Below are positions 13,870-33,768 of a stretch of DNA of 64,000 bases, in pieces. The stretch comes from a virus (lineage: Duplodnaviria > Caudoviricetes). A program made the translations under genes and the position numbers. The stretch's first letter is position 1; the number at the start of each line of letters is the position of its first letter. Below the pieces are notes generated by a model. That model searched no databases and was not told the origin of the DNA. It saw only the letters and a list, made by a program, of their open reading frames with translations. The DNA lies in IMG/VR virus record IMGVR_UViG_3300047160_031539, positions 9,633 to 73,632 of that record; one strand, 5' to 3'.

Positions 13870-14868
13870 TTATTCCGAAGGGACGGGCGGGGCGGCAAGG
13901 CAGGACAGCAGGTCGGCCTCCACGGCGGCCGGCTCGGGCGGCTCCCCGTAGGGCTTCTGGACGTAGACGCGGCCGGCGGCGTGGGCCCAGAGGGCCGCGT
14001 CGGCCAGGGACAAGCCGTGAGACAGGCCCAGGAGCAGGTGGGCCGCGAAACAGTCGCCGGCCCCGACGTGGTTAGCCTGCCGGACAGGGGGCCACCGCAG
14101 CGAAGGGTCGGGCGGCAGGGGCCTGCTGACGGTCCCCTCAAACCCCGGGAGGAAGACCAGGGGCGGCATGGGCCCACAGGTCACGACGGTACACTGCCAG
14201 GCGATCGAGGGGTGGTGACCGGCGTACTCGGCGTTGCACTTGAGCACCGCACCCCGGGCGCACCCCGGCGGCAGCCGCAGGTCAGCCACCACCCGGATGC
14301 CCCGGGACACACAAGCCCGCACCAGGCCGTGGACGGTCGGGCCGTCCAGGAAGCCCTTGCCGTAATCGGAGATCAACAGGCCATGCCAGTCCTGCTCCCG
14401 GACGAGCCGCAGGGCCTGCTCGCGACAGGTGGCCGTCTCCGACGCGGACAGGCCGTGGCAGGCGGGCTCCTTGTCCACGCGGTAGGCGATCCGGCCGTCG
14501 GGCTTCACGTAGCGGTACTTGACCGGGTTGGCCGGGCACTCGAAACAGAGGTCGGTACAGACGCCGGTGGTGAAACAGCGGTCGAGCTTGCGGGACAGGG
14601 GGGCCACCAGGCTCACCTCGCAGCCCCAGTTGCCCAGTTGGCTGGCGGCCCCGGCAGCCCCGCCCGGCCGGAGGTACTCCTGGCCGGTCACGAAACAGCC
14701 ACAGTCGTCCTGGCAGGCCCGGGGCTGGCCCGTGACCCACACGTCCACGATCGGGTCGCCGATCACACAGATCCGTTTGGGGAAGGCCCGGTCGAGGACG
14801 ACAAGGCTTGGGCGTACTTTTCCCAAAGATCCCCGATGATCTTCTGGCTGCACCGCTTCACTGTCCAT
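13870..14868 (-). CDS. PfkB-family sugar kinase, HldE/RfaE (heptose-7-phosphate kinase)-like
   Basis: ICVIGDPIVDVWVTG, PGGAAGAASQL, LLISDYGKGFL, VGAGDCFAA. GGAGG RBS. Confidence 0.85.
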   Translation of the reverse strand: MDSEAVQPEDHRGSLGKVRPSLVVLDRAFPKRICVIGDPIVDVWVTGQPRACQDDCGCFVTGQEYLRPGGAAGAASQLGNWGCEVSLVAPLSRKLDRCFTTGVCTDLCFECPANPVKYRYVKPDGRIAYRVDKEPACHGLSASETATCREQALRLVREQDWHGLLISDYGKGFLDGPTVHGLVRACVSRGIRVVADLRLPPGCARGAVLKCNAEYAGHHPSIAWQCTVVTCGPMPPLVFLPGFEGTVSRPLPPDPSLRWPPVRQANHVGAGDCFAAHLLLGLSHGLSLADAALWAHAAGRVYVQKPYGEPPEPAAVEADLLSCLAAPPVPSE

Positions 14869-15023
14869 GACACCCTCCCCAGGGGACTCGGCCCGAAAAA
14901 CGCCTCCGCCACGGACGGGCTGCCCGCGACCGCTTCCAGCCGCCGGCACGCCCCGTGCGGCGTCCGCTTGCCACGCCCCCGCTTCCGCCCACACAGGGGG
15001 CACAGGTTAGGGCCGCGAGCCAT
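14763..15023 (-). CDS. Hypothetical protein with a CxxC motif
   Basis: MARGPNLCPLCGRKR; overlaps the kinase gene by about 100 nt, so uncertain. Confidence 0.35.
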   Translation of the reverse strand: MARGPNLCPLCGRKRGRGKRTPHGACRRLEAVAGSPSVAEAFFGPSPLGRVSWTVKRCSQKIIGDLWEKYAQALSSSTGPSPNGSV

Positions 15024-15685
15024 CACGACCCCCCGCCGCGAATTTCAGGTGGCGCAATTGCGCCACCTGAAGAAGTCGTCCAGAACGCCACGTTGCGCAT
15101 GAGCCCGTGCCCCGACAGGTTGCCCTCGTACCAGACCTCCCGGGCCACGACGGCATGACCCCCGCGGCCGACCGCGGCCAGCAGCCGATCCTCGGTGACG
15201 TAGCAGTGGGGGTAGTCCCTGCCGTCATCGAGATCCTCGTCGAGGATCTGCACGTCGAAGGCAGCGTTTTCGCCCCTGGCCAACAAGTCGGCCAGGTGCT
15301 CGTCCAGGCCCTCCAGCGGGACGTGCTTGAGACAGGAGAAGCTCACGACCAGGTCGTGCGTGGCCCCGTCCCACGGCACGCCCGCGTCCGTGAAGGAGGC
15401 CCGCTCGAGGGGGAAGTCCAGGAACCTCTCCCGGGCCATCCGCAAGAGTGCCAGGGACGCCTCAACGCCGCTGTAGGTCAGGGAGGGGTGATTGAGGACC
15501 AGCGTCCGGGCCAGCAGACCCGAATGACAGCCCAGCTCCAGGACAGTACGGATGCCGGCCCGCGTGATCCTCGGCCCGACGAACGCGGCGGCCTGCAGGT
15601 ACTCGCGGTTGAGCAGCCAGCCGACCTCCTCGTCGGTGGCGTGACTGCCCTCGTCGAACCACTCGCCGATCGTCTTTTTGCTCAC
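15023..15685 (-). CDS. Class I SAM-dependent methyltransferase
   Basis: VLELGCHSG, YSGVEAS, HDLVVSFSCLKHVP. Confidence 0.8.
   Translation of the reverse strand: MSKKTIGEWFDEGSHATDEEVGWLLNREYLQAAAFVGPRITRAGIRTVLELGCHSGLLARTLVLNHPSLTYSGVEASLALLRMARERFLDFPLERASFTDAGVPWDGATHDLVVSFSCLKHVPLEGLDEHLADLLARGENAAFDVQILDEDLDDGRDYPHCYVTEDRLLAAVGRGGHAVVAREVWYEGNLSGHGLMRNVAFWTTSSGGAIAPPEIRGGGS
15046..15069. repeat. 24-bp palindrome, copy 4 (perfect)
   Basis: Within the last codons of the methyltransferase (GGAIAPP). Confidence 0.95.
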
Positions 15686-16854
15686 GCCTGGACCACCTCC
15701 AGCCGGGGCAACGCGAAGGCGATCTCGCCGCGGAAACCCGCCGAGCGTTCCCTCAGAATCAACTCGTCCCGGAAGTGGCCCAGGACGGTCAGGTACACGT
15801 CGGGCTCCAGGGCACGGGAGTCTTTCTCGGTCAGGATGGGAATGTTCGTCCCCGGGCAGCGGCGGCCGGCCTTCCGCGGGTCGCGGTCGCTGGCATACTC
15901 GACCAGACCCGGGTCCACGTCGGCGAACTGCAGGACGGTGTTGGCTTTCGAGCTGGCCCCCAGGAGGTGGACCCGCTTGCCCGCCCTGCTACAGCCCACG
16001 AGATACCTCAACAGTTCCCTGCGGTGCTGGCGGACCTGGGAGGCGAACCCCACCAGGTTGTAGTCAAGGCCCGGCGGCGGCACCCCCTGCCCACGCCTGC
16101 CGTAAACCCGGAGCGAGCCGCCGTTAGAGTCGTTGACGCTCGAAGAGACCGCCCGCATCCCGGCCAGGTCCAGACAAAAAGCCAGGCTCGGCAGGTCGTA
16201 GTAGCACAGGTGCTCGTGCAGGATGGAGTCGTAAGACAGGTTGGCGATCATCGCCGCCAGGTCGGCCACCTCCACGCACCAGATGCCCTCGGGGGTCAGG
16301 CAGTCCCGGACGGCCGAGGCGAACTTCACCGGGTCGTCGGCGTCGTAGAGGCAGGCCACCGTGTAGACCAGGTCGAAGGAGGGCCACTCCTTCGGCAGGG
16401 CGGCGGGGAAAAAACCCCGGACGCGGTTGACGGTCGGCGGGCACTCCACGTCGGCCGGGTCGATGCCGTAGCGGCCGCGGGCACAGGCCGGCGTGTGGGC
16501 CAGGAGCGTGCCGTCGTTGCAGCCCACGTCCAGCACCTTGCGGGCCGCCAGCGGGTCATCGGCGGTCAGGCCCCACGCCTCCCCGGCCAGGTTGCGGAGG
16601 TGCTGGTGCATCGTGGCACTGATGCCCGAGCGGTAGTAGTAGGAGCGGAACTGAAGCTCCGGATCGACCGTGTGGCGGAGTTGCACCAGGTTGCACCCCG
16701 GGCACTGGCACAGGACCAGTGGGTAGGACGGCGGGTCGGGCTCGCCGGGCCCGGGGAACTGGCCGGCCAGCCGGTGGCGGCCGAGGTCCAACACGTCCTC
16801 CAGGCCGTCGGTGCCGCACAGACGGCAGGCGTCGGCCCGCTCGCAATCGGCCAT
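15682..16854 (-). CDS. NDP-hexose C-methyltransferase family protein (Zn-binding, SAM and C-terminal domains)
   Basis: CRLCG...VLDLG...PLVLCQC..CNLVQL, VLDVGCNDGTLL, ILHEHLCYY, LGASSKANTVLQF. Confidence 0.88.
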   Translation of the reverse strand: MADCERADACRLCGTDGLEDVLDLGRHRLAGQFPGPGEPDPPSYPLVLCQCPGCNLVQLRHTVDPELQFRSYYYRSGISATMHQHLRNLAGEAWGLTADDPLAARKVLDVGCNDGTLLAHTPACARGRYGIDPADVECPPTVNRVRGFFPAALPKEWPSFDLVYTVACLYDADDPVKFASAVRDCLTPEGIWCVEVADLAAMIANLSYDSILHEHLCYYDLPSLAFCLDLAGMRAVSSSVNDSNGGSLRVYGRRGQGVPPPGLDYNLVGFASQVRQHRRELLRYLVGCSRAGKRVHLLGASSKANTVLQFADVDPGLVEYASDRDPRKAGRRCPGTNIPILTEKDSRALEPDVYLTVLGHFRDELILRERSAGFRGEIAFALPRLEVVQA

Positions 16855-16867
16855 CGTCACGCACCCC

Positions 16868-17180
16868 CTACTTGGCCTTGGGGATCGGCTTGTTGGCGAA
16901 ATACTGCAGCTTGGTCTTCTTGCCGGCACGGAAGGCGTTCCAGGCCGTGATCGACTTGGCGTACTGGACCCGGAAGGCCGACTCGGCCTTCTCCTTGCGG
17001 TCCTTGATGTCGCCCGATGCAGGGGCGGAACTCGCCGGCGGCCAGGATGCGGCGGTAGACCATGAGCCGCCGCTCCTTGATGCCCCGGTCGCCCGGGACC
17101 GGGTCCATCTCCACGAACTCCCGAACCAGTGCCAGGGTCACGCGGACGGTCTTGGGCTTCTCCACATAACGGCGGGCCAT
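16868..17180 (-). pseudogene. Probable internally deleted and frameshifted gene remnant (ParB/DNA-binding-like)
   Basis: The N-terminal frame (MARRYVEKP...RRILAAGEFRP) and a different C-terminal frame (...SITAWNAFRAGKKTKLQYFANKPIPKAK-TAG 16868) both look protein-like and meet near 17020. Confidence 0.45.
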
Positions 17181-17181
17181 C

Positions 17182-18045: not shown

Positions 18046-18728
18046 GGGTTCCTCCGCAACACCAGGGAGGCGAAGGTGTAATCGTAGACCCACGGCGAGA
18101 AGTGCGACCAGTCGGGCTCCCCACGCCAGCAACCGACGGCGTCGTAGGGCCGCCCCAGCCGGCCCAGGAGGGCCATCAGGGCCCGCAGAGAGGACTCGCT
18201 GTAGGTGCGCAGGTGCCCCCCCACCAGCCGCTTGCCGGTCGGGTGAAAGTCGGCCGTCAGAACCAGAAGACCCCCCGGCCTCACCTTCCCCAGGAGCCTG
18301 TCGGCGAAACCAAAGTCGTCCCCGACGTGCTCGATCACCGACAGGCAGGCCACCACGTCGTAAGGGCCCTCACGCCACGACTGCAAGTCCGAGTTGCCGA
18401 AGCGGATGTTCTGGCCGATCAGGGCCCCCTGTGCCGCCACCCGGGCTGCACAGTCTCCCGGGTCAATCTGGGTCACGTCCGCCCCACAGCGGGCGGCCGC
18501 GGGACTGAACAGGCCGCCGCCGCCGCCCACGTCCAGGACCGTCTGGGCGTCGGAACGGGTGCAACACCGCAGGGCCAGGGCGTACTCCCAGAAGCAGGAC
18601 GGGTGCGGGATGCCGGGCGGGGCCGGTGCCAGGTGGGCCTTCATCCCGTACAGGAAACCCAGTTCGGGGTCCAGAAGGTTGAAGTCGGCCGGGTTGAGCA
18701 GCTTGGAGTAGGTCGGCAGGTCTCTCAC
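18042..18728 (-). CDS. Class I SAM methyltransferase (paralogue B)
   Basis: WEYALAL, VLDVGGGGG, YDVVACLSVIEH. Confidence 0.85.
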   Translation of the reverse strand: MRDLPTYSKLLNPADFNLLDPELGFLYGMKAHLAPAPPGIPHPSCFWEYALALRCCTRSDAQTVLDVGGGGGLFSPAAARCGADVTQIDPGDCAARVAAQGALIGQNIRFGNSDLQSWREGPYDVVACLSVIEHVGDDFGFADRLLGKVRPGGLLVLTADFHPTGKRLVGGHLRTYSESSLRALMALLGRLGRPYDAVGCWRGEPDWSHFSPWVYDYTFASLVLRRNP

Positions 18729-19417
18729 AACTCCCTCTGGAGAACGAGCGAGGCAAAAGTGTAATCGCAGACTTCCGGCGTGAAACCGGACCAGTCCGGC
18801 GGGTGAGGCCACCACGAGACCGTGCCCAGCCGCCCCAAATCCCAGTCCGTACCGAAGGGCCTGACCAGTTCCTCCAGGCGGGCCTCGTTGTAGGTCCGCA
18901 GGTGCCCCGTCACCCGGGGCTGGCCGGACGGGTGGAAGTCGGTCGTCAGGACGATCAGGCCCCCGACCCGCGTCCTCCGCAGCAACTCCTCGAGGAACGC
19001 AACATCATCGGGCGTGTGCTCGATCACGCTCACGGAGGCCACCACGTCGTACTCTTCCGGTGAATGCTCGTGGAGATAACACTGCCTGAACGCCATGGGC
19101 CGGCCCACGCGGGCGGCCTGGGCGGCCACCAGGGGGCCGAAGTGCCCGGGGTCAATCTGGGTCACTTCCAGGCCGCAGCGGGCCGCCGCGGGGCTCAGGA
19201 GGCCGCCGCCGCCGCCAACGTCCAGAAAGGTCCCGGCCCCCGACCGCAGGGCACACCGCAGGGCCAGGGCGTACTCCCAGTAACGGTTGGGGTGCGGCAC
19301 GTCCGGCGGGCAGGGGCTCAGGTGGGCGTTCATGCCGTAGAGGAAGCCCAACTCGGGGTCGAGGAAGTCGTAGTCCCCCGGCCGGAGCACCCTGGAATAG
19401 GTCGGCAAGTCTCTCAC
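18725..19417 (-). CDS. Class I SAM methyltransferase (paralogue A)
   Basis: WEYALAL, FLDVGGGGG, YDVVASVSVIEH; colinear with 18042-18728. Confidence 0.85.
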   Translation of the reverse strand: MRDLPTYSRVLRPGDYDFLDPELGFLYGMNAHLSPCPPDVPHPNRYWEYALALRCALRSGAGTFLDVGGGGGLLSPAAARCGLEVTQIDPGHFGPLVAAQAARVGRPMAFRQCYLHEHSPEEYDVVASVSVIEHTPDDVAFLEELLRRTRVGGLIVLTTDFHPSGQPRVTGHLRTYNEARLEELVRPFGTDWDLGRLGTVSWWPHPPDWSGFTPEVCDYTFASLVLQREL

Positions 19418-19429
19418 GGTCGGTCCCTC

Positions 19430-19453
19430 CCGGTGGCGCAAATGCGCCACCTG
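19430..19453. repeat. 24-bp palindrome, copy 5 (variant CCGGTGGCGCAAATGCGCCACCTG)
   Basis: 4 nt after the stop at 19458 and abutting the GGAGG RBS of the 19417 gene. Confidence 0.92.
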
Positions 19454-19457
19454 ACAC

Positions 19458-20234
19458 TCAACCGGGCTCGGAAGCCAGGTAGTCCTTCAGCCGTTCGTAG
19501 TCGGCCGCCGAGACGACCGACGGCACGTCGTGCCGCCTGGGCATCCGGGACCGCCACCGCCGGTACTGGGCGTAGTCGTGCGTGTGGATGTAGTGCCGCG
19601 GATTACCCGTCTGGTACTGGTTGACCGACACCTTGCCCGCCAGGAGGCTGGCCAGGTAGTGCTCAAGCCCCGGATAGCCCCTGACCGCCCCCACGTCGAA
19701 GACGCCCGCCAGGGCGGCCGTCCTGGAGGCAAAAAAGGCCGTGTTGACCGAGTCGGACCAGCGGAAGCCGGAATAGTCGGCCCCGGCGTCCAGGTCGGCC
19801 AGCATCGCCCGCACCGAACCGGGCCAGGGGATGATGTCCTCGGCCGTGTGGACGTAGTAAGGGTAGCCCCAGTAACCGGCACACTCCAGCCCCTGCCGCA
19901 GGGTGATGGACGCCCCGATCTGGTGGTCGGCGTCCTCGGGGCTGGCCAGGACCGTGACCCGCTTCATCACCTCCCAGAGCAGGTCCCGCTCGGCACCCGT
20001 GGGGACCTGGAGGATCGGCAAAAGGGCCGAGGCCGTCACCACTACCCGTGCCTCCCGGCGGTCGGGGTGACGGCCCAGGCCACGGGCGATCCCCTGGTAA
20101 AGGCTCACCGCCTCCAGAAGCCACTCCATGTGGTCCTTGGCGCCGACCATGACGGCGCCGGGGGAGCCGGCCACCGCCCCCTTGGCGTGCGAACCACACC
20201 AGGAAATCCCCACGAGTACGGCGGGCAGAGGCAT
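19458..20234 (-). CDS. Putative GT-A-like glycosyltransferase (paralogue of 21001-21687)
   Basis: QIGASITLRQGLECAG..GYPYYVHTAEDIIP (xED motif), within the sugar cluster. Confidence 0.5.
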   Translation of the reverse strand: MPLPAVLVGISWCGSHAKGAVAGSPGAVMVGAKDHMEWLLEAVSLYQGIARGLGRHPDRREARVVVTASALLPILQVPTGAERDLLWEVMKRVTVLASPEDADHQIGASITLRQGLECAGYWGYPYYVHTAEDIIPWPGSVRAMLADLDAGADYSGFRWSDSVNTAFFASRTAALAGVFDVGAVRGYPGLEHYLASLLAGKVSVNQYQTGNPRHYIHTHDYAQYRRWRSRMPRRHDVPSVVSAADYERLKDYLASEPG

Positions 20235-20242
20235 CGGGGTCC

Positions 20243-21004
20243 TCAGCCGAGACGGTTCAGGCAGTCCACGACCTCGGCGGCCGTGGGGTTGACGAGGTAG
20301 TGGTTCAGGGGCGAGCGGACGAAGTGCCGCGAGTCACCGCCGCCGGAGTGGACGCACAGCCGCGTGAGATAAAACCCGTTGGCGCAGACCAGGTGACTGG
20401 TCGAGCCGCCAACGAAACCCAGTGAGCCGGCGATCAGGGAACACTCCTGGAGGTAGTCACAGCCGGTGCGGTCGATGACCCTGTCCGTCGAGACCCTCTC
20501 GCCGGCCGCCCCGACCTGCACCACCGGGTGGCGGCAAGACTCCACCAACTCAACGTGCCCGGCGGCCGACAGGTCGCAGCCGGCCAGGACGACGTAGCCG
20601 GGCCTCACGTAAAGGGGCGAGTCGGGTCCCAGAAGCGGGCAGTCGTAGTGAATCGGCAAGCCCCCGGGCAGGCCGACCGAGGCCGCGATATAGTCCGGCA
20701 GGGGGCGATCCGGGGTCGAGCGGTAGCCCAGGTGGAAGACGGCGTCGTAGCCGTCTTCCGGCACCGGCATCTGCCACGGCTGGACACCACAGCCGGCGTG
20801 CTCCATGCGGTACCCGGGGCTGACGACGAACCGGCGGACGAAGGACTGGTAGCCGATCAGGGGCCCGAGGTTGCGGCAGTGCTCCGAGGTATAGAAGTCG
20901 CAGCGGGCCGCCCGGTCGTAGCAGAGCCTCCGGGCCGCCGGCAAGGCGTAGAGACAGTCACCCCGCTTGCCGGGGTGCGTGACGGCGATGACCCTCTCGC
21001 TCAC
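20243..21004 (-). CDS. GT9 (heptosyltransferase)-like glycosyltransferase
   Basis: HPGKRGDCLYALPAARRL, VVQVGAAGE, LIAGSLGFVGGSTSHLVCA. Confidence 0.65.
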   Translation of the reverse strand: MSERVIAVTHPGKRGDCLYALPAARRLCYDRAARCDFYTSEHCRNLGPLIGYQSFVRRFVVSPGYRMEHAGCGVQPWQMPVPEDGYDAVFHLGYRSTPDRPLPDYIAASVGLPGGLPIHYDCPLLGPDSPLYVRPGYVVLAGCDLSAAGHVELVESCRHPVVQVGAAGERVSTDRVIDRTGCDYLQECSLIAGSLGFVGGSTSHLVCANGFYLTRLCVHSGGGDSRHFVRSPLNHYLVNPTAAEVVDCLNRLG

Positions 21005-21687
21005 AGGCCAACCTCCTTGCACCACCGCCGCCACTCCGGCCAGTCATGCGTGTGCCGGTAGAGGCGGCCCAACTCCAGCCGTGCCACTGCCCGACCCTCC
21101 AGGAGCTGCCCCAGATAACGCTCCAGGCAGGGACCCGACCCGTCCTGCCAGACGGCACAGGGGTCAAAGAGGCCGGCCAGGCGGCCGACCTGGCAGCCGA
21201 AAAACTGGGCGTTGACCTGGCCCGGCGACCACGCCTGGCCCACGTACTCGTAACCCCCGACCGTCAGGTGCTCCAGCATGGTGGCAACGGCATCGGGTGT
21301 CGGGAAAATATCCTCACAAGTGTGAATCAGACAGTCGTAGCCCAGCTTGCCCGCACACTCCAGGCCCAGCCGGATCGTCCAGGCCGCCCCCTGCTGGTGG
21401 CCGGGGTTCTGGGCCATCGTCACGAACCGCGACCACCTGAACGCCTCCCAGTACCAGTCCCGCTCCAGGTTGTTCTGCTGCACGTCCACGTCCGGCCAGC
21501 CCGGCCAGCCCGTGATCGAGACGAAGAAGTGCCGCGGGGACAGACCAGGGCAGCGGAAGCGGTAAAGCTCCAGGGCCGAACACAGCCAGCGGGCGTGGTC
21601 CTCGCCCCGCATCTGGTTGGCCCAGTCGCCGCCGCGGTAGTGCTCGGCACAGTGCCCAAAGTTGATCGCCACCTTGGTGTTGGTCAT
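21001..21687 (-). CDS. Putative GT-A-like glycosyltransferase (paralogue of 19458-20234)
   Basis: QQGAAWTIRLGLECAG..GYDCLIHTCEDIFP. Confidence 0.5.
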   Translation of the reverse strand: MTNTKVAINFGHCAEHYRGGDWANQMRGEDHARWLCSALELYRFRCPGLSPRHFFVSITGWPGWPDVDVQQNNLERDWYWEAFRWSRFVTMAQNPGHQQGAAWTIRLGLECAGKLGYDCLIHTCEDIFPTPDAVATMLEHLTVGGYEYVGQAWSPGQVNAQFFGCQVGRLAGLFDPCAVWQDGSGPCLERYLGQLLEGRAVARLELGRLYRHTHDWPEWRRWCKEVGL

Positions 21688-21688
21688 T

Positions 21689-21928
21689 TTACCCTCGTTT
21701 TGGCCTGTGCCTCGGCCGACCCGACTTCTTCGGGGCCCTGTTCGGCGTCTGCGTCTGCGCCTGCACCTGCGCCTTGATGTCGAGCAATGCCCTGTCCATG
21801 CAGTCGTAAAGATACTTGATCATATGGTCGGCGATCCCTCTGAACCCCTGGGCACAGAACCGCTCGTGCGTGCGGATAATCAGGCCAGCCAGGGCGTCCG
21901 CACCATAGTCTTTGGCTTCTTGGTCCAC
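21689..21928 (-). CDS. Hypothetical protein
   Basis: GGAGG RBS plus GTG after palindrome 6. Confidence 0.6.
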   Translation of the reverse strand: MDQEAKDYGADALAGLIIRTHERFCAQGFRGIADHMIKYLYDCMDRALLDIKAQVQAQTQTPNRAPKKSGRPRHRPKRG

Positions 21929-21946
21929 GGAAACCTCCCTTCATGC

Positions 21947-21970
21947 CAGGTGGCGCAATTGCGCCACCTG
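21947..21970. repeat. 24-bp palindrome, copy 6 (perfect)
   Basis: Intergenic between 21988 and 21928. Confidence 0.95.
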
Positions 21971-21987
21971 AAGCTCTAGCCCAGCTT

Positions 21988-22281
21988 TCATTTCTCAATC
22001 TCCCTGTAAAGGTGCTCCAGGCCAAAGGCCCGGATCATCGTGTCCACCGCCGACCGCCGCAGGAAATGCGTCCGGTCGGGCCCATCGTCCTCCTCGTTCC
22101 TCCCCTCAAGGTCCAGGACGATGGCCTTGTGGAAGTTGTGGGCGGCCATGAAGCCGTCGATATACGCCATCCCCTCGGGGTTCCTCCCCAGGTACTCACT
22201 GATGAACTCCTCGTAGCAGGCGATCAGGCGTCCGGTCAATTCCTCGACCACCCCCCGGTCAGCCGCAACAACCTTATCCAC
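21988..22281 (-). CDS. Hypothetical protein
   Basis: 97-aa acidic ORF with a GGAGG RBS. Confidence 0.65.
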   Translation of the reverse strand: MDKVVAADRGVVEELTGRLIACYEEFISEYLGRNPEGMAYIDGFMAAHNFHKAIVLDLEGRNEEDDGPDRTHFLRRSAVDTMIRAFGLEHLYREIEK

Positions 22282-22627
22282 TCGCCACCTCCTTTAACTC
22301 CTGCAGGCCGACCTCGAAGTCGGTCAACTCCTCCGTCCAGAACGACCACTCCCAGACTTGCCCCCCGTGCCACTTCACGCAGCACAGGCTCACCACCCTC
22401 GCCGGCCCCCCGTCCAGGCCGTACAGCACTTTTCCCGTCTCCCCGAGGGCCGCCTTGACCGGGTCCACGCGGTCAGCCGGCATGTCAAACAGCACCGTCC
22501 AGTTCCGACGCGAACGGCCAGAAAAAACCACCGGGGAGTCGCCGTAACACATCGGCCCGGCGGTCAGCTGCAGCCGCAGGCCGCCGTACTCGACGAATTG
22601 CGGGCCCTTCTTCTTCACCCGAACCAC
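22274..22627 (-). CDS. Hypothetical protein
   Basis: 117-aa ORF overlapping both neighbours. Confidence 0.55.
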   Translation of the reverse strand: MVRVKKKGPQFVEYGGLRLQLTAGPMCYGDSPVVFSGRSRRNWTVLFDMPADRVDPVKAALGETGKVLYGLDGGPARVVSLCCVKWHGGQVWEWSFWTEELTDFEVGLQELKEVASG

Positions 22628-24513
22628 CCCCTCGCCTCCATCAGGGCGATGACCTCGTCCGGCTTCTCCCGGAGGTACAGGAGCGGCAGATAGTTGCCCT
22701 TGGACGTGAACGCCGGGTTGGTCCAGGCCGAGGCCATCCGCTCGTCGAAGGCGACCAGCCGCTTGGGGTGAATGCTGTTACCGTCGGGCCGCCACCACAT
22801 CGCCACCCGCTTGCCCAGGTAGTGGGCGAAGATCCCCAGACCGCACTGGTAGCTGACGAAGAACTGGGACCGCCGCAGGAGGGCCATCGTCTCGCCAATC
22901 TCAAATTTCCCGATCAGGTTGTAACAGGAGACCCCGGCCTCCTCCATGCCCCTCTTGACGTAGTGGTCCCAGTAGGACATGTCGTAAGGGGCCCCGACCA
23001 GGACGATCTTGAGGTCGCGGGCGGAAACGGACTTGGCCAGCGTGACCCAGTCCTTGGGCTCCCACAGGAAGCCGCGGTTGTGGCCTTCGTCCACATTTCC
23101 CGATTCGGGGCCCAAATAGAAAGCGACGAAAGGAGAGAGGGCCCGGCCGACCTCGTCGCCCCGCTCGGTGCCCGACCAGTCGAAGTCGTCCACCACGGAC
23201 CAGTCGATCGGGTGCTCGGGCAGCCACTCCTCCAGCCGCCGGCCGTCCTCCAGCACCTTGTTGGGCACCAGGTAGTGAAAGCCGTTGTGCTCGCCGTCGG
23301 ACAGGTAACGCCAGCGACCCTTTTCGTCGTTCTTCTTCTCGTCCTCCTCGTAGCCGGCGTCCAGGACGGGCACGTCCAGGACTGTGGCGGACCTGACGAA
23401 GGGGAAGCGTTTGACGAAGGGGATGGCCCGGCGGTCGATCTCCCGGCGCATGTCGCCGCACAGGACCAGGTCGATGGCCCCCCCGGCGGCCACGGCCTTG
23501 ATCTTGTGCAGGACCCAGAGGATGTCGCCGATGCCGTTGGGCACGGCGTAGGCCACTCCGGCACCCTTGGGCCGCTCGAAGCGGAGGACCTCCGAGAGCC
23601 ACTCGCGGGCGGCGTCCACCATGCCGCCGTCGCCCCGGTAGACGCGGAAGCGGTAGTGGGCCTCGAAGAAGGAGGCCACCTGGTTGTCCTCGCAGGGCGG
23701 CACCGAACGCCAGTCGGCCGGGACCAGGTGCATCGTCGTCGGGCACGGGTCGTGGAACTGCACCGGGCTGTGGTCCCTCCAGATGGAGAGGGAGGGCGTG
23801 CCGGTCGCACTGGCACACTTGCCGGGGCCCGAGTCGATACCCACGAACGCCTCGGCCATGTGGATCAGGGCCGCGATCGTCTCGGCGTCGCCGCTGCCGA
23901 ACTCCCCCCAGATGTCGCCCTTGCCGACCGGGGGACGGAAGACTCGCTTGTTGTCGGCCAGGGGGGAGCGGCCGTCCCAGTCCAGGAGGACCGGCACCCG
24001 GCCGGCGGCCAGGGCGTGGTCGATCAGCACCTTGGCCTGCCAGTGGGACAGGTTCTTCTTCCAGGTCGAGGTGTTGCCCTCGTAGTGGATGACGAAGGCG
24101 TTGTACTTCTCCGCCGCGACCTCCCTGCAGCCGATGGACCGCAGGTAGTTGGCCACCTTCCCCCGGCAGTCGCCCGACAGCTTGATCTCGTAGCGGGCCA
24201 GCTCCCGGTCCCAGCCCAGGCCAAAGACCTCCTGCAGGCAGTTGGTGATCTTGGAGTTGGGCCGGTCGCCGAAGTGCAGGTAGTTCTCGTACCAGCCGAT
24301 GTCGGCAACCGTGTCGTAGAGCTTGTGCGGTGGCTCGGGCTCCTGGTCGTGCCACACGGCGTTGCAGAAGCCGCGGAGGGCCGAGTGCTTGCCCCGGCCG
24401 CAGCGGACGTCGATCTGCCAGTCGGGGCGGTGCTTTTTCAGGTGCTTGAGCACCACAACGAACTGCACCACGTCGCCCAGCCCGTGGCTGAAACGCAGGA
24501 GAATCTTGGCCAC
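22615..24513 (-). CDS. Tandem two-domain GT9 (ADP-heptose:heptosyltransferase-like) glycosyltransferase
   Basis: Two GT9 N-motifs (FSHGLGDVV; VPNGIGDILW) and two C-motifs (AEAFVGIDSGPGK; SQFFVSYQCGLG). Confidence 0.85.
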   Translation of the reverse strand: MAKILLRFSHGLGDVVQFVVVLKHLKKHRPDWQIDVRCGRGKHSALRGFCNAVWHDQEPEPPHKLYDTVADIGWYENYLHFGDRPNSKITNCLQEVFGLGWDRELARYEIKLSGDCRGKVANYLRSIGCREVAAEKYNAFVIHYEGNTSTWKKNLSHWQAKVLIDHALAAGRVPVLLDWDGRSPLADNKRVFRPPVGKGDIWGEFGSGDAETIAALIHMAEAFVGIDSGPGKCASATGTPSLSIWRDHSPVQFHDPCPTTMHLVPADWRSVPPCEDNQVASFFEAHYRFRVYRGDGGMVDAAREWLSEVLRFERPKGAGVAYAVPNGIGDILWVLHKIKAVAAGGAIDLVLCGDMRREIDRRAIPFVKRFPFVRSATVLDVPVLDAGYEEDEKKNDEKGRWRYLSDGEHNGFHYLVPNKVLEDGRRLEEWLPEHPIDWSVVDDFDWSGTERGDEVGRALSPFVAFYLGPESGNVDEGHNRGFLWEPKDWVTLAKSVSARDLKIVLVGAPYDMSYWDHYVKRGMEEAGVSCYNLIGKFEIGETMALLRRSQFFVSYQCGLGIFAHYLGKRVAMWWRPDGNSIHPKRLVAFDERMASAWTNPAFTSKGNYLPLLYLREKPDEVIALMEARGWFG

Positions 24514-24806: not shown

Positions 24807-26117
24807 TCAACCTGAGCAGCAACGCAAGACCGCCTCGGCCACCGCCTCGGGCCGGATCATCTCCAGGCAGCGGGGGATGGGCGGGTCGCCGGGGACGGGC
24901 TGCTCGCACAAACTGCCGTCCTTCTGGTCGTTGTCGCCCAGGGGGACCGTCCGCGACCGCCAGCAGCCCCCCTCGCGGCAGCAGGACAGGAGGCCGACCG
25001 TGTGCAGGGTCTGCTGCAGCGGGTAGGCGTTCCAGGGCACGGGCTCCCGACCCCCCAGGATGCACACGTAGGGCTTCTTCGAGGCGGCGGCCAGGTGCAT
25101 CAGCAGAGTCGTGCCGCCCACGGCCCCCTGGGCGTGGTGGAGCAGGCGGACCAACTGGCGGTCGTCCGTCTTGCCCCGCAGGTCCACCACGCCGTCGAGG
25201 TCGGGGTGGCTGTGGCCGTTGTCCCCCTTGCCGACCTGAACAAATTGCACCCGGCCCCGCAGGAGGTCCACCAGCCGCTGGTAGTTCCGCTTCCCCCAGT
25301 GCTTGGCCGTGTAGTCGCTCTTGGTCCCGGCATTAAGCACCCAATACTGCTGGGCCCGGCCCGTCACCTCGTGGACCTGGGGCAGCCAGGCCTTCTCCTG
25401 CTCACTCAGCCAGATCATGGGCCGGTTGGTCGCCAGCGGGCAGGGGACGCGGAGGTTGTCGGCCAGAAACTCACAGTAAGCCTGCAGGAAGTGGATGGCC
25501 CTCTGGTTGCACTCGTTGACCGCGGGGTAGTGGGTCTGGCAGACCTCAAAGCCCCGCTGGCGGGCCTGGTCGAGGGAGACCACGTCAGGGTTGTGCTCCC
25601 AGAACGCCTGGGCGGTCGTGTCCACGGCAACCTCGAACTGGCCGGGGTTGGCCCTGTGGAGACTGTGGATGGCCGCCGTCATCACCAGCACGTCACCCGG
25701 TGACAGGTGGTTGACCAGGATCAGGCGGCGGGGCTCGGGCACGAGGGTTCGCGGCCTCCAGGCACAGGACTGACAGTCGTGGAGGGTGATTTCATCAAAC
25801 GAACCGTCCACTTTCAAGCGGGAGGGGCAACGGCACTGGAAGACCTCCAGTTCCTTGTCGCCCCCTCAGCCCGTCGAGCACCAGCGTTTCCGGACGGAGC
25901 CGTCCTCGTTGCGGACCCGCCTGTAGAGGTGCGGGCAACGGGGCACCTTGGCGGCAAGGGACCGGATGTCATTGTCGGCCTCGCGGTCGTAAAGGACCTT
26001 GTAGGCCAGGTCGTTGACGTAGAGCCAGCAGACCCGGCAGGACTTCCCGTCCCAGGGAGATCCCGTCGGCGGCAGCAGGGCATCGGCGTGCCCGCAGGGG
26101 CGGCCCATGAGGTTCAA
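24807..26117 (-). CDS. Cys-rich domain plus GT9 glycosyltransferase, candidate selenoprotein (in-frame UGA at 25868-25866)
   Basis: ORFs 25866-26117 and 24807-25817 share a frame, separated only by TGA: ...RWCSTG*GGDKELEVFQCRCPSRLK...HDCQSC...NHLSPGDVLVM. GT9 motifs VQFVQVG, DLRGKTDDRQL, GAVGGTTLLMHLAAA. Confidence 0.7.
25823..25868 (-). promoter_or_regulatory. Bacterial SECIS-like hairpin immediately 3' of the in-frame UGA
   Basis: UGA-GGGGGCGAC-AA-GG-A-ACUGGA-GGUCU-UCCAGU-G-CC-GUUGCCCCU: 9-bp lower stem, 6-bp upper stem and an apical AGGUCU. Confidence 0.7.
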
Positions 26118-27100
26118 CTGGTAATGACGATATTGACGCCTCCGTTACAACAGGAGACGCCGCTGGGCGGCACACGCAGGTTAAAATTGTCGAACTCAAA
26201 GAACGGCGGGGAGCAGGAGGCGCTGGAGCCGTCGTCTTTTTGCGTGGCAAAGACGCTACTATCATTGTTACAGCAAAAACGCAGTTTGAATTTCGACGGC
26301 GTCGGGATGCCGACCGCGTTGTCGCAGAAGAAGGCCATCGCGATCACGCCCTTGCCGGCGCACCTGCCGTCGTAACGGTCAATAAGGGCGTAAAGCCACC
26401 AAATGGGGAAGATTAGTCCCTGCCAAAAGGGATCTTTAATCATGAAGCTCAACGGGGCGGCCAGGTAGGCCAGGGGCACGACCAGGCCGCCCAGACAGCC
26501 GCAGCCCGCCCGGTTGACGAAGGTCGCGACCAAAGTCTGCGGCAGAAGTTGGGCCGGCGGGGTGGACGGGCAGCAGGCCACCTGGACCGGCGGGGGCCCC
26601 CCCGAGGAGGACGCCGACGACGAGTAAGACGAGTGCAGGGAAGGGCTGGTGCTCAGGAGGATGTTGACCAGGCCCGCACAGGGCGAATTTAACAGACCGC
26701 CGAGGTTGACACCCTTGAACAGGGCGTTGAGGGTCACGTTACTCTCGACATCGACACAGTAAAGATTCACCGAGTCGGGCGAGTAGACCTGGCCCCCGAC
26801 CGACAGTCCGAACTGGCTCGCGGTCAACCCGTCGCCGCCGCAGTAGAAGTCGAGTGGGATGCTCGCACCGGGCGTACACGTCAAGATCGGGGCGTTGGCC
26901 GTCCAGTGCTGCGTGCCGGGGGTGTTGTTGAGCGTCACAGTGGTGTCGTCCAGACAGCCGCAGCCCGAGACGTTCGTCAGGCGGGCCGTGATCTGGCTCC
27001 ACATGTACGGCTGGACCGTAAAATAGGGGGCGCAGCACGGGCACACGACCCGGTAGCGGGGCGGCCCGGAGGGCGAGGACGAGACGGCGGCAACGACCAT
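26114..27100 (-). CDS. Cys-rich virion-associated protein with two repeat domains
   Basis: CPCC...ITARLTNVSGCGCLD and CCP...LVATFVNRAGCGCLGG repeats. Confidence 0.65.
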   Translation of the reverse strand: MVVAAVSSSPSGPPRYRVVCPCCAPYFTVQPYMWSQITARLTNVSGCGCLDDTTVTLNNTPGTQHWTANAPILTCTPGASIPLDFYCGGDGLTASQFGLSVGGQVYSPDSVNLYCVDVESNVTLNALFKGVNLGGLLNSPCAGLVNILLSTSPSLHSSYSSSASSSGGPPPVQVACCPSTPPAQLLPQTLVATFVNRAGCGCLGGLVVPLAYLAAPLSFMIKDPFWQGLIFPIWWLYALIDRYDGRCAGKGVIAMAFFCDNAVGIPTPSKFKLRFCCNNDSSVFATQKDDGSSASCSPPFFEFDNFNLRVPPSGVSCCNGGVNIVITS

Positions 27101-27112
27101 AGCCCGTACCTC

Positions 27113-27604
27113 TCAGGAAGTGACGATGACGTTGCACATGCCCACGCAGCACGGCATGCCGACCGGGTCGTTCAGGTTAATGCCGTTGAAGGGCACACTC
27201 ATGACCGGGTTCTGCTGGCCGTCGGAGCAGTGGCAGACCGGGTGGGGGACCGGCTTGACGGTCTGGGTGTAGGTCTGGGTGTTGCACTGGACCGTCAGGC
27301 GGAAGTCGTCACAGAGCAGGCCCGAGCCGCCGCAGGAGAAAGTCACCGACAAGTTGCCCTGGGGGCAGGAGCCCGGCCCGACGAGCGGGCCGGAGACCCA
27401 GGCACCGGCCTCCGGAGGCCCCGGGGCCCGCGTGAGGGCCACCGTCAGGCCGTCCAGGCAGCCGCAGTCCTGGCCGGGGATCGCCACGAAGGAGGCGTAG
27501 AGCGTGCTCCAGGCGACCGGCACCTGGCTGAACTCCCCCTGACAGCAGGGGCAGAGGGTCAGGTAGCGCGACGGCCCTGGCGAAGACGAGGCGGGTGAAG
27601 CCAT
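27113..27604 (-). CDS. Cys-rich virion-associated protein with one repeat domain
   Basis: CPCC...LYASFVAIPGQDCGCLDG...GINLNDPVGMPCC; GGAGG RBS after palindrome 8. Confidence 0.65.
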   Translation of the reverse strand: MASPASSSPGPSRYLTLCPCCQGEFSQVPVAWSTLYASFVAIPGQDCGCLDGLTVALTRAPGPPEAGAWVSGPLVGPGSCPQGNLSVTFSCGGSGLLCDDFRLTVQCNTQTYTQTVKPVPHPVCHCSDGQQNPVMSVPFNGINLNDPVGMPCCVGMCNVIVTS

Positions 27605-27617
27605 GCGAGGTCCCTCC

Positions 27618-27641
27618 CAGGTGGCGCAATTGCGCCACCTG
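27618..27641. repeat. 24-bp palindrome, copy 8 (perfect)
   Basis: 6 nt after the stop at 27648, before the RBS. Confidence 0.95.
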
Positions 27642-27647
27642 ATTCTA

Positions 27648-30600
27648 TCAGGGAACGATCGTAACACCGATGTTCGCGAAGCGGCAGCAGGGCGTGCCGA
27701 TGTTGTCGTTGTTGTTGATGCCCGTAAAAGTCAGAGACAGGGGCGAGCAACTGCAAGGGCTCGGGTTGTAAGTCGTCGAGATCGACGACGTGTTGCACTG
27801 GAAGATGAGCTGGAAGCCGGTGCAGGCCGTCTGGCCGGCCGGGCAGCGGAGCTGGAGGTTCAGGGTGGGGTTGCCCGTGCAGGTCGTCGGGATGTTGGCC
27901 GACTGCCAGGAGTTCACGACGCCGTTAAAAGTCAGGGTCACCTGCACCCCGTCGATGCAGGGGCAGCTCGGGGCCGAGATCGTCGCGTGCAGGACCGCCG
28001 GCAGCAGGAACGGGGCGCAGCAGCCGGTCGAGATCGTTCCCCCAACCACCGAGGAAGACGACAGCGACGGTAAGGGCGAGGAGGGCGAGGAAGGCGAAAT
28101 CGCCGAGGAGGACGGCGACGGGGAAGAGGGCGAGGAAGAAAGCGACGGCGAGGAAGGCGAGGACAGGAGAACCGAGGACGAAGACGACGAGGGGGACGAG
28201 GGGCTGCTGGCCGGGCTGACGCAGCAGGGCAGGACGACCGAGATGCCGTTCATGGCCGCCGTGCCGGCCACGCTGGCCGTGCGGACGCCCGTAGGGCAAG
28301 GCGTCGGCTGCTGGAACGACACCTCCGTGCCCAGGTCGCCCACCGAGGTGTCCAGGCCCGAGTCCGTCATGCCCGGCGGCGGGGTAATGACGATGCCGCC
28401 GATCTCGTGGAAGCTGCAGAAGAGCAGGCTGTTGGGCCCACAGCCCAGGGACGGGGCCTGCGGGTTGGGGGCATTGGTCTGCTGGCCGGCCCCGGTGGGG
28501 GCACCGGCCTGGCCGACCGAGGTACACAGGGCCGTGATCCCGTCGGCCCCGCCCGTCGTGCTCCAGATGCCCGGCCCGGGGCTGGCCGGGGCCACCCGCC
28601 AGTAGGCGTACCCCTGGGCCGTCGTCCCCAGGGCCGTGAAGGCCCCGCCCGTGGCCAGGAATGTCCAGTTGGGGTCGGGCGTGAACGTCCCGGCCGTCTG
28701 GTCCACGGTGAGCCAGGTCAGCATGATGTCCCCGGCCTGCGTCCCGGGGGGCACGGGCACGCTGACCGACGTGCCCGCGTCGTGCGTCCAGCCCCGGATA
28801 ATGCACTGGCAGCCAGCCGACGACGGGCCCGAGGACGAGACCGAAGGCGACGGCGAGGCAGACAGGGACGCCAAGGGCGAGGGAGAAGAGGACAGGGAGA
28901 CCGACGACGGGAAGGAAGCGGAGAACGACGAGGACAGGGACAGGGCGCTCAGGGACGACGCCGAGGGCGACGAGGGGGAGGAGGACAGGGAGATGCCGAC
29001 GCAGCAGGGGACAACCGTGCTGATGCCGGCCATGAAGGCCAGGGGGCCGCTGACGGTGGCGTGGAAGGGACCGACCATGCCGACCATCGGCTGCCTGTAG
29101 GAGACCTCCACGGCCGTCCCGCCCGTGTTGACGACCGTGTCCTGGCCCGACTCCGTGAAGCCCGGCGGCTGTGTAATGACCGCCGGGTTGACGGGCAGTT
29201 CGTGGAAGCTCGCGAAGACCAGGTTGTTGGCCGCCGTGGCCACGACGGCCGGGGCCAGGGCGTTGTCCGAGCGGGTGATCTGGGCCACGCCCGTGGGGAT
29301 GCCGGCCTGGCCGATCGCTGCCATGACCATCGAGATCTCGTAGTTGTCCACCCAGTTGCTGGCCGGCTCGTTGGCCCCGGCGACCTTGTAGTACACGAAG
29401 CCGCGGATGCGGAAGTTCGTCGCCCAGGTCACGGGCGGCGATTTGACGCACAACGTCCAGGACGGGTCCGGCACGAAGGCACCGCCGCCACCACCCGGGT
29501 TAACGTCCTGCCTCGTCGTGTCGGCCGTGATGAAGGCCAGGAGCAGGTCGCCGGGCTGGTAGCCGGGGGGCGGCAGGATGGACAGGGTCTCGACACTGTA
29601 GCCCTGGACAAAGCCGCGGACGATGCAGGGGCAGTAGGACGACGACGACGACAGGGACAAGGAGCGGGCCGAGATCGAGGGGGCCGAGACGGAGGAGGCC
29701 AGGACGCAGCAGGGCAAGACGACCGAGGCCCCGGCCATCGTGCGGACGCCCGGCACCGAGGCCGTCCGGATACCCGTGGGGCCCACGGCCCCGAACTGGT
29801 AGGAGACCTCCGTGCCCAGGTCGCCCACCGCCGTGTCCAGGCCGCTGTCCGTCATGCCGGGCGGCTGGGTAATGAACGCCCCGCCGAACTCGTGGAAAGA
29901 GCAGAAGAGCAGCCCGTTGGGGGCCCCCGGCGTCGAGGGGGCCTGCGGGTTGGGCGAGGCGGTAAGCTGGATTGCCCCGGCGGGAATGCCGGCGTTGCCG
30001 ACCGCGGTCTCCAGGACCGTCATGGCGATCCCGTCCACGCCGTCGGACCAGGCCGCCGCCGGCTCATTGGCCTGTGCGACCTTCCAGTAGACGAAAGCCC
30101 TCAGAGACTTGTCGCTCCCGTAGAGCCAGTAGTCGCTCCGGAGCAGGAGGTTCCAGGACGGGTCGGGACTGAAGGAGCCGCCGTTGGGGTCACCCGCGTC
30201 GTCGTAGGACGTGTCGGCCGTGATGAAGGCCAGCAGGATATCGCCCGGCTGCGTTCCGGCCGGCGGGTTCACCAGCAGGAACGTCTGGCCGATGGCAATG
30301 GCCCCGTAGGACCAGCCGCGGATCTCGCACTGGCAGGCCCCCGAGGCGGAGGAGACCGACGCACTGGGCGAGGCCAGCGTGATCGGCAGGGCCGGCGACG
30401 ACGGGGAGGACGGGCCCACCAGGGGCGGCCCCACGGGCAAGGGCGGCCCGACCGAACTCGGCGAAAACGACGAGGACGGCGACGACGGCGAGGAAGCCGG
30501 GGAAGAAACGTGGGCCGCCGACGAGGCCGCCGAGGAGGCCACCGCCGGGGAAGACGCCACGGGAGACGTTATACCGGCCGAGACCGCCGAGGAAGGCAAG

Positions 30601-30998
30601 AAGCCGAAGGGAAACTGCAGGCCCGAGGGTGAGGACGACGAACTCGAGCTGACCGGGGCAAAACTCAGCAGGGACGACGAGGAGAGCGACGGGAAGGGCG
30701 CCGGCGCCGGACAGCAGGCCAGGCTGATGGCGTAGAGGGGCAGGCCGGCACCGCCGGGGTGGTTGCCGACCAGGCGGCCGCGGTAGGAGCCGGGCACGAC
30801 CGGGATGCCGTTGGGCTCCCAGACGTAGCAGGCCTCGCGGTCGCGGAGCTTGCCCTGCCCGTCCCACTTCTGCACGTAGGCCGCGTAGACGCCGCCGCCG
30901 GCCGACCCGGTGACCCGGACCAGCTCCCGCAGGGGCGGGTACGACGGCAGCCGGGGCCCCAGAAAGGGCGGGTTCGTGTTGGTGCTGGCCCGGACCAT
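27648..30998 (-). CDS. 1116-aa modular tail-fibre-like protein with Ser-rich linkers
   Basis: Shared N-terminal domain, three ~190-aa internal repeats (C.C.IRG...PPG.Q.GD...), poly-Ser/Pro linkers and a C-terminal Cys-rich domain. Confidence 0.7.
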   Translation of the reverse strand: MVRASTNTNPPFLGPRLPSYPPLRELVRVTGSAGGGVYAAYVQKWDGQGKLRDREACYVWEPNGIPVVPGSYRGRLVGNHPGGAGLPLYAISLACCPAPAPFPSLSSSSLLSFAPVSSSSSSSPSGLQFPFGFLPSSAVSAGITSPVASSPAVASSAASSAAHVSSPASSPSSPSSSFSPSSVGPPLPVGPPLVGPSSPSSPALPITLASPSASVSSASGACQCEIRGWSYGAIAIGQTFLLVNPPAGTQPGDILLAFITADTSYDDAGDPNGGSFSPDPSWNLLLRSDYWLYGSDKSLRAFVYWKVAQANEPAAAWSDGVDGIAMTVLETAVGNAGIPAGAIQLTASPNPQAPSTPGAPNGLLFCSFHEFGGAFITQPPGMTDSGLDTAVGDLGTEVSYQFGAVGPTGIRTASVPGVRTMAGASVVLPCCVLASSVSAPSISARSLSLSSSSSYCPCIVRGFVQGYSVETLSILPPPGYQPGDLLLAFITADTTRQDVNPGGGGGAFVPDPSWTLCVKSPPVTWATNFRIRGFVYYKVAGANEPASNWVDNYEISMVMAAIGQAGIPTGVAQITRSDNALAPAVVATAANNLVFASFHELPVNPAVITQPPGFTESGQDTVVNTGGTAVEVSYRQPMVGMVGPFHATVSGPLAFMAGISTVVPCCVGISLSSSPSSPSASSLSALSLSSSFSASFPSSVSLSSSPSPLASLSASPSPSVSSSGPSSAGCQCIIRGWTHDAGTSVSVPVPPGTQAGDIMLTWLTVDQTAGTFTPDPNWTFLATGGAFTALGTTAQGYAYWRVAPASPGPGIWSTTGGADGITALCTSVGQAGAPTGAGQQTNAPNPQAPSLGCGPNSLLFCSFHEIGGIVITPPPGMTDSGLDTSVGDLGTEVSFQQPTPCPTGVRTASVAGTAAMNGISVVLPCCVSPASSPSSPSSSSSSVLLSSPSSPSLSSSPSSPSPSSSAISPSSPSSPLPSLSSSSVVGGTISTGCCAPFLLPAVLHATISAPSCPCIDGVQVTLTFNGVVNSWQSANIPTTCTGNPTLNLQLRCPAGQTACTGFQLIFQCNTSSISTTYNPSPCSCSPLSLTFTGINNNDNIGTPCCRFANIGVTIVP

Positions 30999-33658: not shown

Positions 33659-33668
33659 AAGGGCCTCC

Positions 33669-33692
33669 CAGGTGGCGCAATTGCGCCACCTG
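33669..33692. repeat. 24-bp palindrome, copy 9 (perfect)
   Basis: Immediately upstream of the RBS of the 33658 gene. Confidence 0.95.
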
Positions 33693-33768
33693 ATTTCTCC
33701 GGGCAGGCGGGCCGGCCACCTTGCCCAACGCGGCCCGCCCCCCCGGCGGTTGTGGTACAACGCCGACT

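Follow-up and report, generated by a model that had tools for sequence, protein, structure and literature searches.

Bacteria decode UGA as selenocysteine (Sec) when a stem-loop inside the open reading frame (ORF), the selenocysteine insertion sequence (SECIS), is read by SelB, a textbook mechanism found in genes such as Escherichia coli fdhF. With respect to viruses, a 2021 review of recoding listed only poxvirus glutathione peroxidase (GPx) genes (PMC8310308), and a 2026 review of the prokaryotic selenoproteome mentioned neither phages nor glycosyltransferases (PMC13188914). Our own inspection of the searchable literature returned no phage-encoded selenoprotein and no selenoprotein among GT9 or other glycosyltransferases. 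Here, we analyzed a 64,000-nt stretch (hereafter, the window; bases 9633-73632) of a 73.6-kb linear IMG/VR soil phage contig that is 86% complete by CheckV and has a G+C content of 68%. On its minus strand, the window harbors a gene of the GT9 glycosyltransferase family that is interrupted by an in-frame UGA at 25868-25866. Drawing on comparative sequence evidence, we consider it highly probable that this UGA encodes Sec. The mechanism itself is of a known kind; the novelty lies in its occurrence in a soil phage and in this protein family.

The phage gene resembles bacterial SelB/SECIS-dependent genes in that its UGA sits at a Cys column and is immediately followed, within the coding sequence, by a stem-loop. 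Unlike those genes, it is carried by a phage whose 73.6-kb record encodes no Sec machinery, and its product is a GT9 glycosyltransferase rather than an oxidoreductase. Poxvirus GPx genes are alike in being viral genes that rely on the Sec machinery of the host, and the fowlpox SECIS also lies in the coding region (PMC8310308). However, they belong to eukaryotic viruses, represent captured host genes and use eukaryotic SECIS elements, whereas here we are dealing with a phage gene, a bacterial-type SECIS and a GT9 family without a known selenoprotein member. In our proposal, the gene (26108-24807) would be translated as a single ORF, with host SelB and Sec-tRNA(Sec) decoding the UGA under the direction of a SECIS within the coding sequence, its apical loop starting 20 nt past the UGA. 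This would result in a 433-aa enzyme, in which a small Cys/Sec-rich N-terminal domain is joined to a GT-B core of the GT9 heptosyltransferase type. Within the former, a C-x3-U knuckle facing a C-x2-C knuckle would most likely constitute a metal-binding or redox-sensitive module.

An initial annotation of this DNA had noted a Cys-rich ORF and a GT9 ORF in the same frame, separated by nothing but a TGA, and this arrangement was confirmed on the minus strand. The Cys-rich ORF (26117-25866) opens with a TTG, specifies 83 aa and closes with the TGA. An ATG at 26108 would yield 80 aa starting with MGRPCGH, as in homologues, and is the probable true start judging from the M-x-RPCGH N-termini of the latter. 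The GT9 ORF ends at 24807, and its first possible start is a TTG at 25817, 16 codons past the TGA; the window sequence contains no possible start codon in between. When the UGA is read as a residue, translation from ATG 26108 to 24807 gives the 433-aa protein with Sec at position 81 (position 84 when counted from TTG 26117, the numbering of P0001). At this locus, the IMG gene calls instead report an 80-aa protein and a 311-aa protein (P0002) starting at GTG 25742. Across the 16 codons that separate the UGA from the next possible start, the family-conserved peptide LEVFQCRCP remains encoded, and such conservation is difficult to account for unless ribosomes pass the UGA. The codon is not generally reassigned, as TGA terminates ~40 of the 61 candidate ORFs in the window and is thus the usual stop in this phage. 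As for further in-frame TGA junctions in the window, the match examined (27115) proved to be an ordinary boundary between two paralogous genes, in a scan that was non-exhaustive and missed the known case.

To place the UGA in the context of the protein family, we compared the read-through protein with its homologues. Dozens of proteins of 410-440 aa span 93-98% of its length, and fusion of the N-terminal domain and the GT9 core in one protein is, by this measure, the norm. The initial annotation had proposed that homologues be searched for Cys at the UGA position. Cys occupies this column in all 22 homologues first aligned (23 sequences including the window) and in at least 90% of a 58-sequence alignment. 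In these Cys forms, a C-x-x-C knuckle is present whose second Cys falls on this column. Particularly informative were several database entries 340-352 aa in length that begin with MLDVF(E/Q)C: in every case checked, the underlying contig showed an in-frame TGA exactly at the Cys column, and the frame upstream of it specified the conserved N-terminal block CPHL.RR.RD..G....R.C..G. A metagenome scan, which returned three loci, contributed an additional such Sec form (L169). We thereby arrived at seven independent sequences with TGA at the Cys column (the window, L081, L082, L083, L084/L085, L086 and L169, with L084 and L085 being identical and counted once), and neither TAA nor TAG was found at this column in any of the seven. 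Every one of them reads C-x-x-G-U, that is, one Gly more than the C-x-x-C of the Cys forms, and the six sequences other than the window share the motif C-x-x-G-[TGA]-4 codons-M-L-D-V-F-E/Q-C. Around the UGA, the seven Sec forms are only ~45-55% identical to one another, and the N-terminal block ahead of the UGA is conserved in all of them just as in the Cys forms. All seven genes had been split or truncated by gene callers.

In a phylogenetic tree, the Sec forms were dispersed among Cys forms within one half of the family, with long terminal branches, and well-supported branches enforced at least three Sec/Cys changes (five by parsimony). This scattering, combined with the branch lengths, implies long retention of the UGA rather than a fresh nonsense mutation. 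The same data speak to a pseudogene or an assembly error, in which a TGC or TGT turned into TGA would have killed the long form while a short form made from GTG 25742 was tolerated. A single third-base change would be enough, and short forms are functional architectures elsewhere; yet six further homologues, although deeply diverged, have the same TGA between conserved flanks, and it is also present in assemblies from two further sequencing runs. This explanation is largely refuted, and we assign it a very small probability. Confirmation of the TGA in raw data, which had been recommended at the outset, was achieved in part: short contigs from two other soil-metagenome runs, one of them a possible source sample, carry the TGA with zero differing letters, at a depth of just 2-5 and as contigs rather than reads.

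Among homologues, proteins of ~310 aa encoded in viral and bacterial genomes raised the question of hidden Sec forms. We rejected this idea, since no N-terminal domain is encoded upstream of them; they represent a real second architecture. A DNA pattern scan of viral contigs gave one match (L173), which was a false positive, and a search of viral contigs for related loci with a single protein gave none. Searching with the 83-aa N-terminal piece alone retrieved only the window's own gene call, and searching with residues 1-45 of P0014 retrieved only P0014. The family is large (~1963 clusters at 50% identity in a representative search, E up to 0.001). In that search, P0128 was seen to start at the Sec column and is a candidate only. 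Proteins of 600-1350 aa (P0129, P0130, P0150, P0166 and others) were also found to combine the GT9 core with a wide variety of other extensions at the N- or C-terminus, making the Cys/Sec domain just one of many add-ons.

The position of start codons bears on what we regard as the most serious rival, a split gene. Here, translation would stop at the UGA to release the 80-aa peptide, and the glycosyltransferase would be made separately—in the other homologues by re-initiation at an AUG four codons further on, and in the window from either TTG 25817 or GTG 25742—with the hairpin serving translational coupling or being incidental. Indeed, an AUG lies exactly four codons past the UGA in six of the seven Sec forms (L081:3001, L082:2120, L083:414, L084:3001, L086:80, and after the TGA at 1802 in L169), and it is there that gene callers start these six. 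The window, in turn, has a GGAGG 12 nt before GTG 25742, the equivalent of the residue at which natural short forms begin, so an internal start at this GTG may still give rise to a short form. However, at least three independent lineages would have to place the break at the codon of an invariant Cys, and always as TGA. The window has GAA in place of the AUG, although the peptide encoded across its start-less 16 codons is still conserved. In addition, the same Met is present in a Cys form (L183/P0015), and the cut would cross a compact, confidently modelled module. Altogether, we deem a split gene quite improbable. The AUG could serve as a restart site upon failed Sec insertion, and such restart may coexist with Sec decoding as a fail-safe.

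We next turn to the RNA structure expected of a Sec codon. The initial annotation had described a 43-nt hairpin directly 3' of the UGA with a 9-bp lower and a 6-bp upper stem, and the sequence folds as claimed (minimum free energy (MFE) of -26.7 to -33.3 kcal/mol depending on the segment). The lower stem pairs 25865-25857 with 25831-25823 and is followed by two extra pairs, the upper stem and a GGUCU loop (25845-25841). Folding of 66 nt gave the lower of the two energies (z = -3.3; none of 200 dinucleotide shuffles as good), and folding of 54 nt the higher (z = -2.95). The apex hexamer AGGUCU begins at +20 after the UGA, while the identical hexamer starts at +18 in E. coli fdhF, whose sequence we confirmed in 5419 of 5426 E. 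coli genomes. Unlike fdhF, most Sec forms of the phage GT9 family have a different loop, with CGUGU in all six homologues and GGUCU in the window alone.

The seven Sec forms align without gaps from the UGA onward, which allowed a consensus structure to be computed. RNAalifold returned a 6-bp stem (columns 18-23 / 29-34) with a 5-nt loop that starts 20 nt after the UGA. A seventh pair, U-G, is available in six of the seven; in these, the U and the G of the AUG four codons past the UGA extend the stem. In the seven sequences, 98% of the stem cells were paired, as compared to 22-45% for slid controls. The lower stem is present in most Sec forms, albeit in a variable register. One pair covaries: the third base of a Leu codon pairs with the first base of the next Glu or Gln codon, as G-C in four sequences and as C-G in three. 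The amino acid switches along with it (Gln with CUG, Glu with CUC), so that pairing is kept, and the pair differs between the sister sequences of the window and L081. Published constraints for bacterial SECIS elements comprise a loop of 3-9 nt, an upper stem of 4-16 bp, a G at loop position 1 or 2, a spacing of 16-37 nt between UGA and loop, and an MFE of at most -7.5 kcal/mol (PMC13188914). The seven Sec forms fall within these bounds, with a 5-nt loop, a stem of 6-7 bp, a spacing of 20 nt and per-sequence MFEs from -11.9 to -27.6 kcal/mol. It follows that the homologues did not turn out to be always split and devoid of a conserved Cys or hairpin, the outcome that would have undermined the initial annotation. 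Instead, fusion is the norm, the Cys column is kept, and six other homologues combine the TGA with the same hairpin, which supports the notion of a candidate phage selenoprotein.

Who might decode the UGA? Neither selA, selB nor tRNA-Sec, nor indeed any tRNA, was found in the phage record, and decoding would consequently depend on the host; reliance on host Sec machinery fits this gene content. The sequence occurs in sequencing runs from soil metagenomes. A search of 185,579 species genomes for homologues of the long form yielded a single Gemmataceae metagenome-assembled genome (MAG; G001), in which the homologue is of the Cys form. It resides on a 6.7-kb contig (L087), and a second contig of the same MAG (L192; ~3.2 kb) encodes a portal protein 56% identical to that of the window. 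A related portal occurred in one of 401 Planctomycetota genomes sampled, namely this MAG. The two contigs stem from a phage related to that of the window, as either prophage or co-binned phage DNA, and form the only host lead. The MAG itself encodes a full-length SelB that scores above the curated cut-off. Its selD gene has an in-frame TGA (L190:2392-2394, minus strand) in the context SCAG-U-AGK, at the known Sec/Cys site, and a GCGCAG-GUU-CUGCGC hairpin follows ~30 nt downstream of this TGA. More generally, of the Gemmataceae genomes sampled, 37 of 41 encode SelB and five of five SelD. A Sec-competent planctomycete host is therefore plausible.

Knowledge of the hairpin and of candidate hosts also helps to evaluate read-through without a SECIS, whereby a near-cognate tRNA for Cys or Trp would insert its amino acid at a leaky UGA, maybe with the hairpin as a stimulant, and no selenium would be involved. 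The frame is clearly meant for read-through, and host Sec machinery is only presumed for this phage, both of which such a mechanism would accommodate. On the other hand, the hairpin conforms to the rules for SelB-type SECIS elements in its position, spacing and loop, a Cys column at which UGA is the sole stop codon used is a classic Sec signature, and SelB is common in the Gemmataceae, the sole candidate host family. In our judgement, SECIS-independent read-through is very improbable.

Several observations weigh against Sec as the decoded residue. The incorporation of selenium is deduced from sequence rather than from experiment. For the window, the TGA is backed by Logan contigs whose low depth would be compatible with minor TGC/TGT variants, and the AUG shared by the six other Sec forms also suits stop-and-restart. 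The covariation amounts to a single pair in seven sequences, with all other pairs invariant, and 12 of 500 shuffles reach its score. Searching 25650-26000 against the Rfam SECIS families, whose models are lineage-specific, gave no match up to E = 10, another point of difference from fdhF. The Gemmataceae link is tentative, coming from short contigs binned in one MAG; tetranucleotide usage did not discriminate between hosts, and a DNA search of 151 Gemmataceae genomes returned weak matches only (none above 76% identity or longer than 240 bp). Finally, the apical stem coincides with the codons for a conserved peptide (L-D/E-V-F-E/Q) and is not exclusive to UGA genes, as it also exists in three close Cys forms (L001, L002 and L182).

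Closer inspection of the Cys forms sheds light on the last of these points. When folded, L001:3211-3264 and L182:1274-1327 kept the two-tier hairpin (z = -3.5 and -2.3, respectively), and the hairpin of L001, L002 (3211) and L182 sits one codon nearer to the Cys codon than it does to the UGA in the Sec forms. L183, a Cys form in the Sec-bearing clade, has the apical stem with one mismatch. By contrast, no structure of this kind was seen in the distant Cys forms L003, L005, L087 and L167 (z = -0.96 to +1.84), whose peptides, LKVFS and LNLFP among them, could not give rise to the stem. This divide between close and distant Cys forms, with which the tree agrees, is most simply explained by a SECIS that originated inside a single clade and lingers, fossil-like, in Cys forms that replaced Sec recently. 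On its own, the hairpin is insufficient proof of Sec; the weight lies with the recurrent UGA at an invariant Cys column. Taken together, we regard the feature as real and most probably a Sec codon. If true, phages can use the machinery for the host's 21st amino acid, and Sec can occur in an enzyme that is not an oxidoreductase, in an apparent metal-binding knuckle. Standard gene callers would systematically split such genes, as they miscalled seven of seven here, and the need for Sec-competent hosts would provide a handle on the host range of such phages.

We then examined the protein that read-through would produce. In the N-terminal domain, the conserved residues (P0001 numbering) are C8, C27, C30, C61-P-H63, C80-x3-U84, C95-x-C97 and C115-x2-C118. 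An AlphaFold2 model of the full protein, based on the 58-sequence alignment, reached a predicted local distance difference test score (pLDDT) of 91.8; the N-terminal ~125 residues were modelled confidently from about residue 60 and C115-x2-C118 was placed at the start of a helix. Compared with solved structures, the N-terminal domain showed no recognizable fold (best Z 2.6). Motif and secondary structure suggest two small metal sites, one putatively formed by C61-P-H63 and C95-x-C/H97 and the other by C80-x3-U84 and C115-x2-C118. A distant parallel is the large subunit of [NiFeSe] hydrogenase, where Sec replaces one Cys of a CxxC metal-ligand motif (PMC13582414). The two cases are alike in that a CxxC-type knuckle, located opposite another CxxC, has Sec in place of its second Cys; they differ in that protein and metal site are unrelated, the phage Sec forms are C-x3-U with an extra Gly, and the metal in the phage protein is only putative.

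The heptosyltransferase-like GT9 identity assigned in the initial annotation held up at the levels of sequence and predicted fold. PF01075 matched residues 209-370 with 39 bits against a cut-off of 22. Residues 124-437 of the model aligned best with solved GT9 enzymes, namely Veillonella GT9 (3tov; VIA-align Z 24.4), WaaF (1psw; 21.9), TibC (4rap; 20.2) and WaaC (2h1h; 20.0), and other GT-B enzymes reached a Z of at most 11.4. In this model, the catalytic part clearly has the GT9 fold. Sequence similarity to the same enzymes is nevertheless very low: all NCBIfam heptosyltransferase equivalogs scored far below cut-off, and a profile search of the PDB returned only WaaF (E 9e-4). The window protein further deviates from them by its additional 125-aa Cys/Sec-rich N-terminal domain and an extra conserved set of Cys residues near the C-terminus (C379, C380, C385, C404 and C417).

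Of the GT9 enzymes compared, TibC invites a closer look. TibC and AAH belong to the autotransporter (protein O-) heptosyltransferases (BAHT), which bear a Cys4 iron finger, made up in TibC of C339, C342, C358 and C370 (PMC4358343). The window protein is similar in that it has an N-terminal add-on to a GT9 core and a Cys cluster late in the C-lobe (C379/C380, C385, C404 and C417), likened to that of TibC by sequence position only, and in that Ser-rich proteins, as possible protein acceptors, are encoded beside its gene. In contrast, TibC is not the nearest structure by Z, and its N-terminal beta-barrel does not align, the alignment starting at model residue 124.

Coordinates of the candidate selenoprotein gene, its parts and its putative glycosylation neighborhood in the window
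Feature	Position	Strand	Evidence or remark
Whole candidate selenoprotein gene	24807..26108	-	Read-through translation; stop codon 24809-24807; homologue coverage 93-98%
In-frame UGA, proposed selenocysteine codon	25866..25868	-	Cys column in homologues; TGA in L081, L082, L083, L084/L085, L086 and L169
SECIS-like two-tier hairpin	25823..25865	-	Directly 3' of UGA; folding, z about -3
Conserved apical stem-loop, 6 bp and 5-nt loop GGUCU	25835..25851	-	RNAalifold consensus of seven Sec forms
N-terminal Cys-rich domain	25743..26108	-	Conserved columns; AlphaFold2 pLDDT ~95 for residues 60-125
GT9 (GT-B fold) catalytic core	24810..25742	-	PF01075 match; structural alignment
GGAGG (25759-25755) and GTG (25742-25740), possible internal start of a 311-aa short form	25740..25759	-	Sequence; gene call P0002
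Neighboring 632-aa protein with two GT9-like halves	22615..24513	-	PF01075, 47.8 bits, two stretches; same glycosylation block
Methyltransferase	18725..19450	-	Sugar-modification cluster
Sugar C-methyltransferase type (PF08421 and PF08484)	15682..16929	-	Sugar-modification cluster
Methyltransferase	15023..15685	-	Sugar-modification cluster
PfkB kinase	13870..15003	-	Weak resemblance to heptose-7-phosphate kinase (E 4e-12, far below cut-off)

Nearly all genes of the window lie on the minus strand, those for the portal, helicase, primase-polymerase and Rad52 included. At lower coordinates, and thus downstream of the candidate selenoprotein gene, a sugar-modification cluster extends over 13870-24513 on the same strand. 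The PfkB kinase in it provides a weak hint at ADP-heptose as the sugar donor. Directly upstream, three consecutive paralogous ORFs (26114-30998, minus strand) encode Ser/Pro/Cys-rich proteins of 328, 184 and 1116 aa. Each ends in a similar C-terminal tail, ...CC....N(I/V).VT(S/P), and the 1116-aa protein contains three internal repeats and long poly-Ser tracts. None of the paralogues had a match in Pfam; they are possible fiber proteins and possible acceptors of the adjacent glycosyltransferases. With a glycosylation block on one side and Ser-rich neighbors on the other, a role of the gene in glycosylating virion proteins or the host envelope appears plausible.

A coupling of glycosylation to selenium or redox state, as raised by the initial annotation, is speculation. 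In an elaborate version of it, Sec would serve the phage glycosyltransferase family as a ligand or a redox switch, housed in a novel Cys-rich domain for sensing or recognition. Selenium supply and host SelB would decide whether the full-length enzyme is made or just a short form lacking the domain (from the conserved AUG after the UGA or from the internal GTG), thereby tuning the glycosylation of the neighboring Ser-rich virion proteins. We regard this scenario as unlikely.

Further genes of the window deserve mention in their own right. Adjoining the Ser-rich proteins, a 949-aa protein (31017-33866, minus strand) contains a G8 domain (PF10162, 38 bits), which is uncommon in phages. The replication module comprises a primase-polymerase (101-1045), a helicase (1026-2642) and Rad52 (3745-4569), and also includes a single protein of the DUF2201 putative metallopeptidase plus VWA-like type (5790-7133, minus strand).

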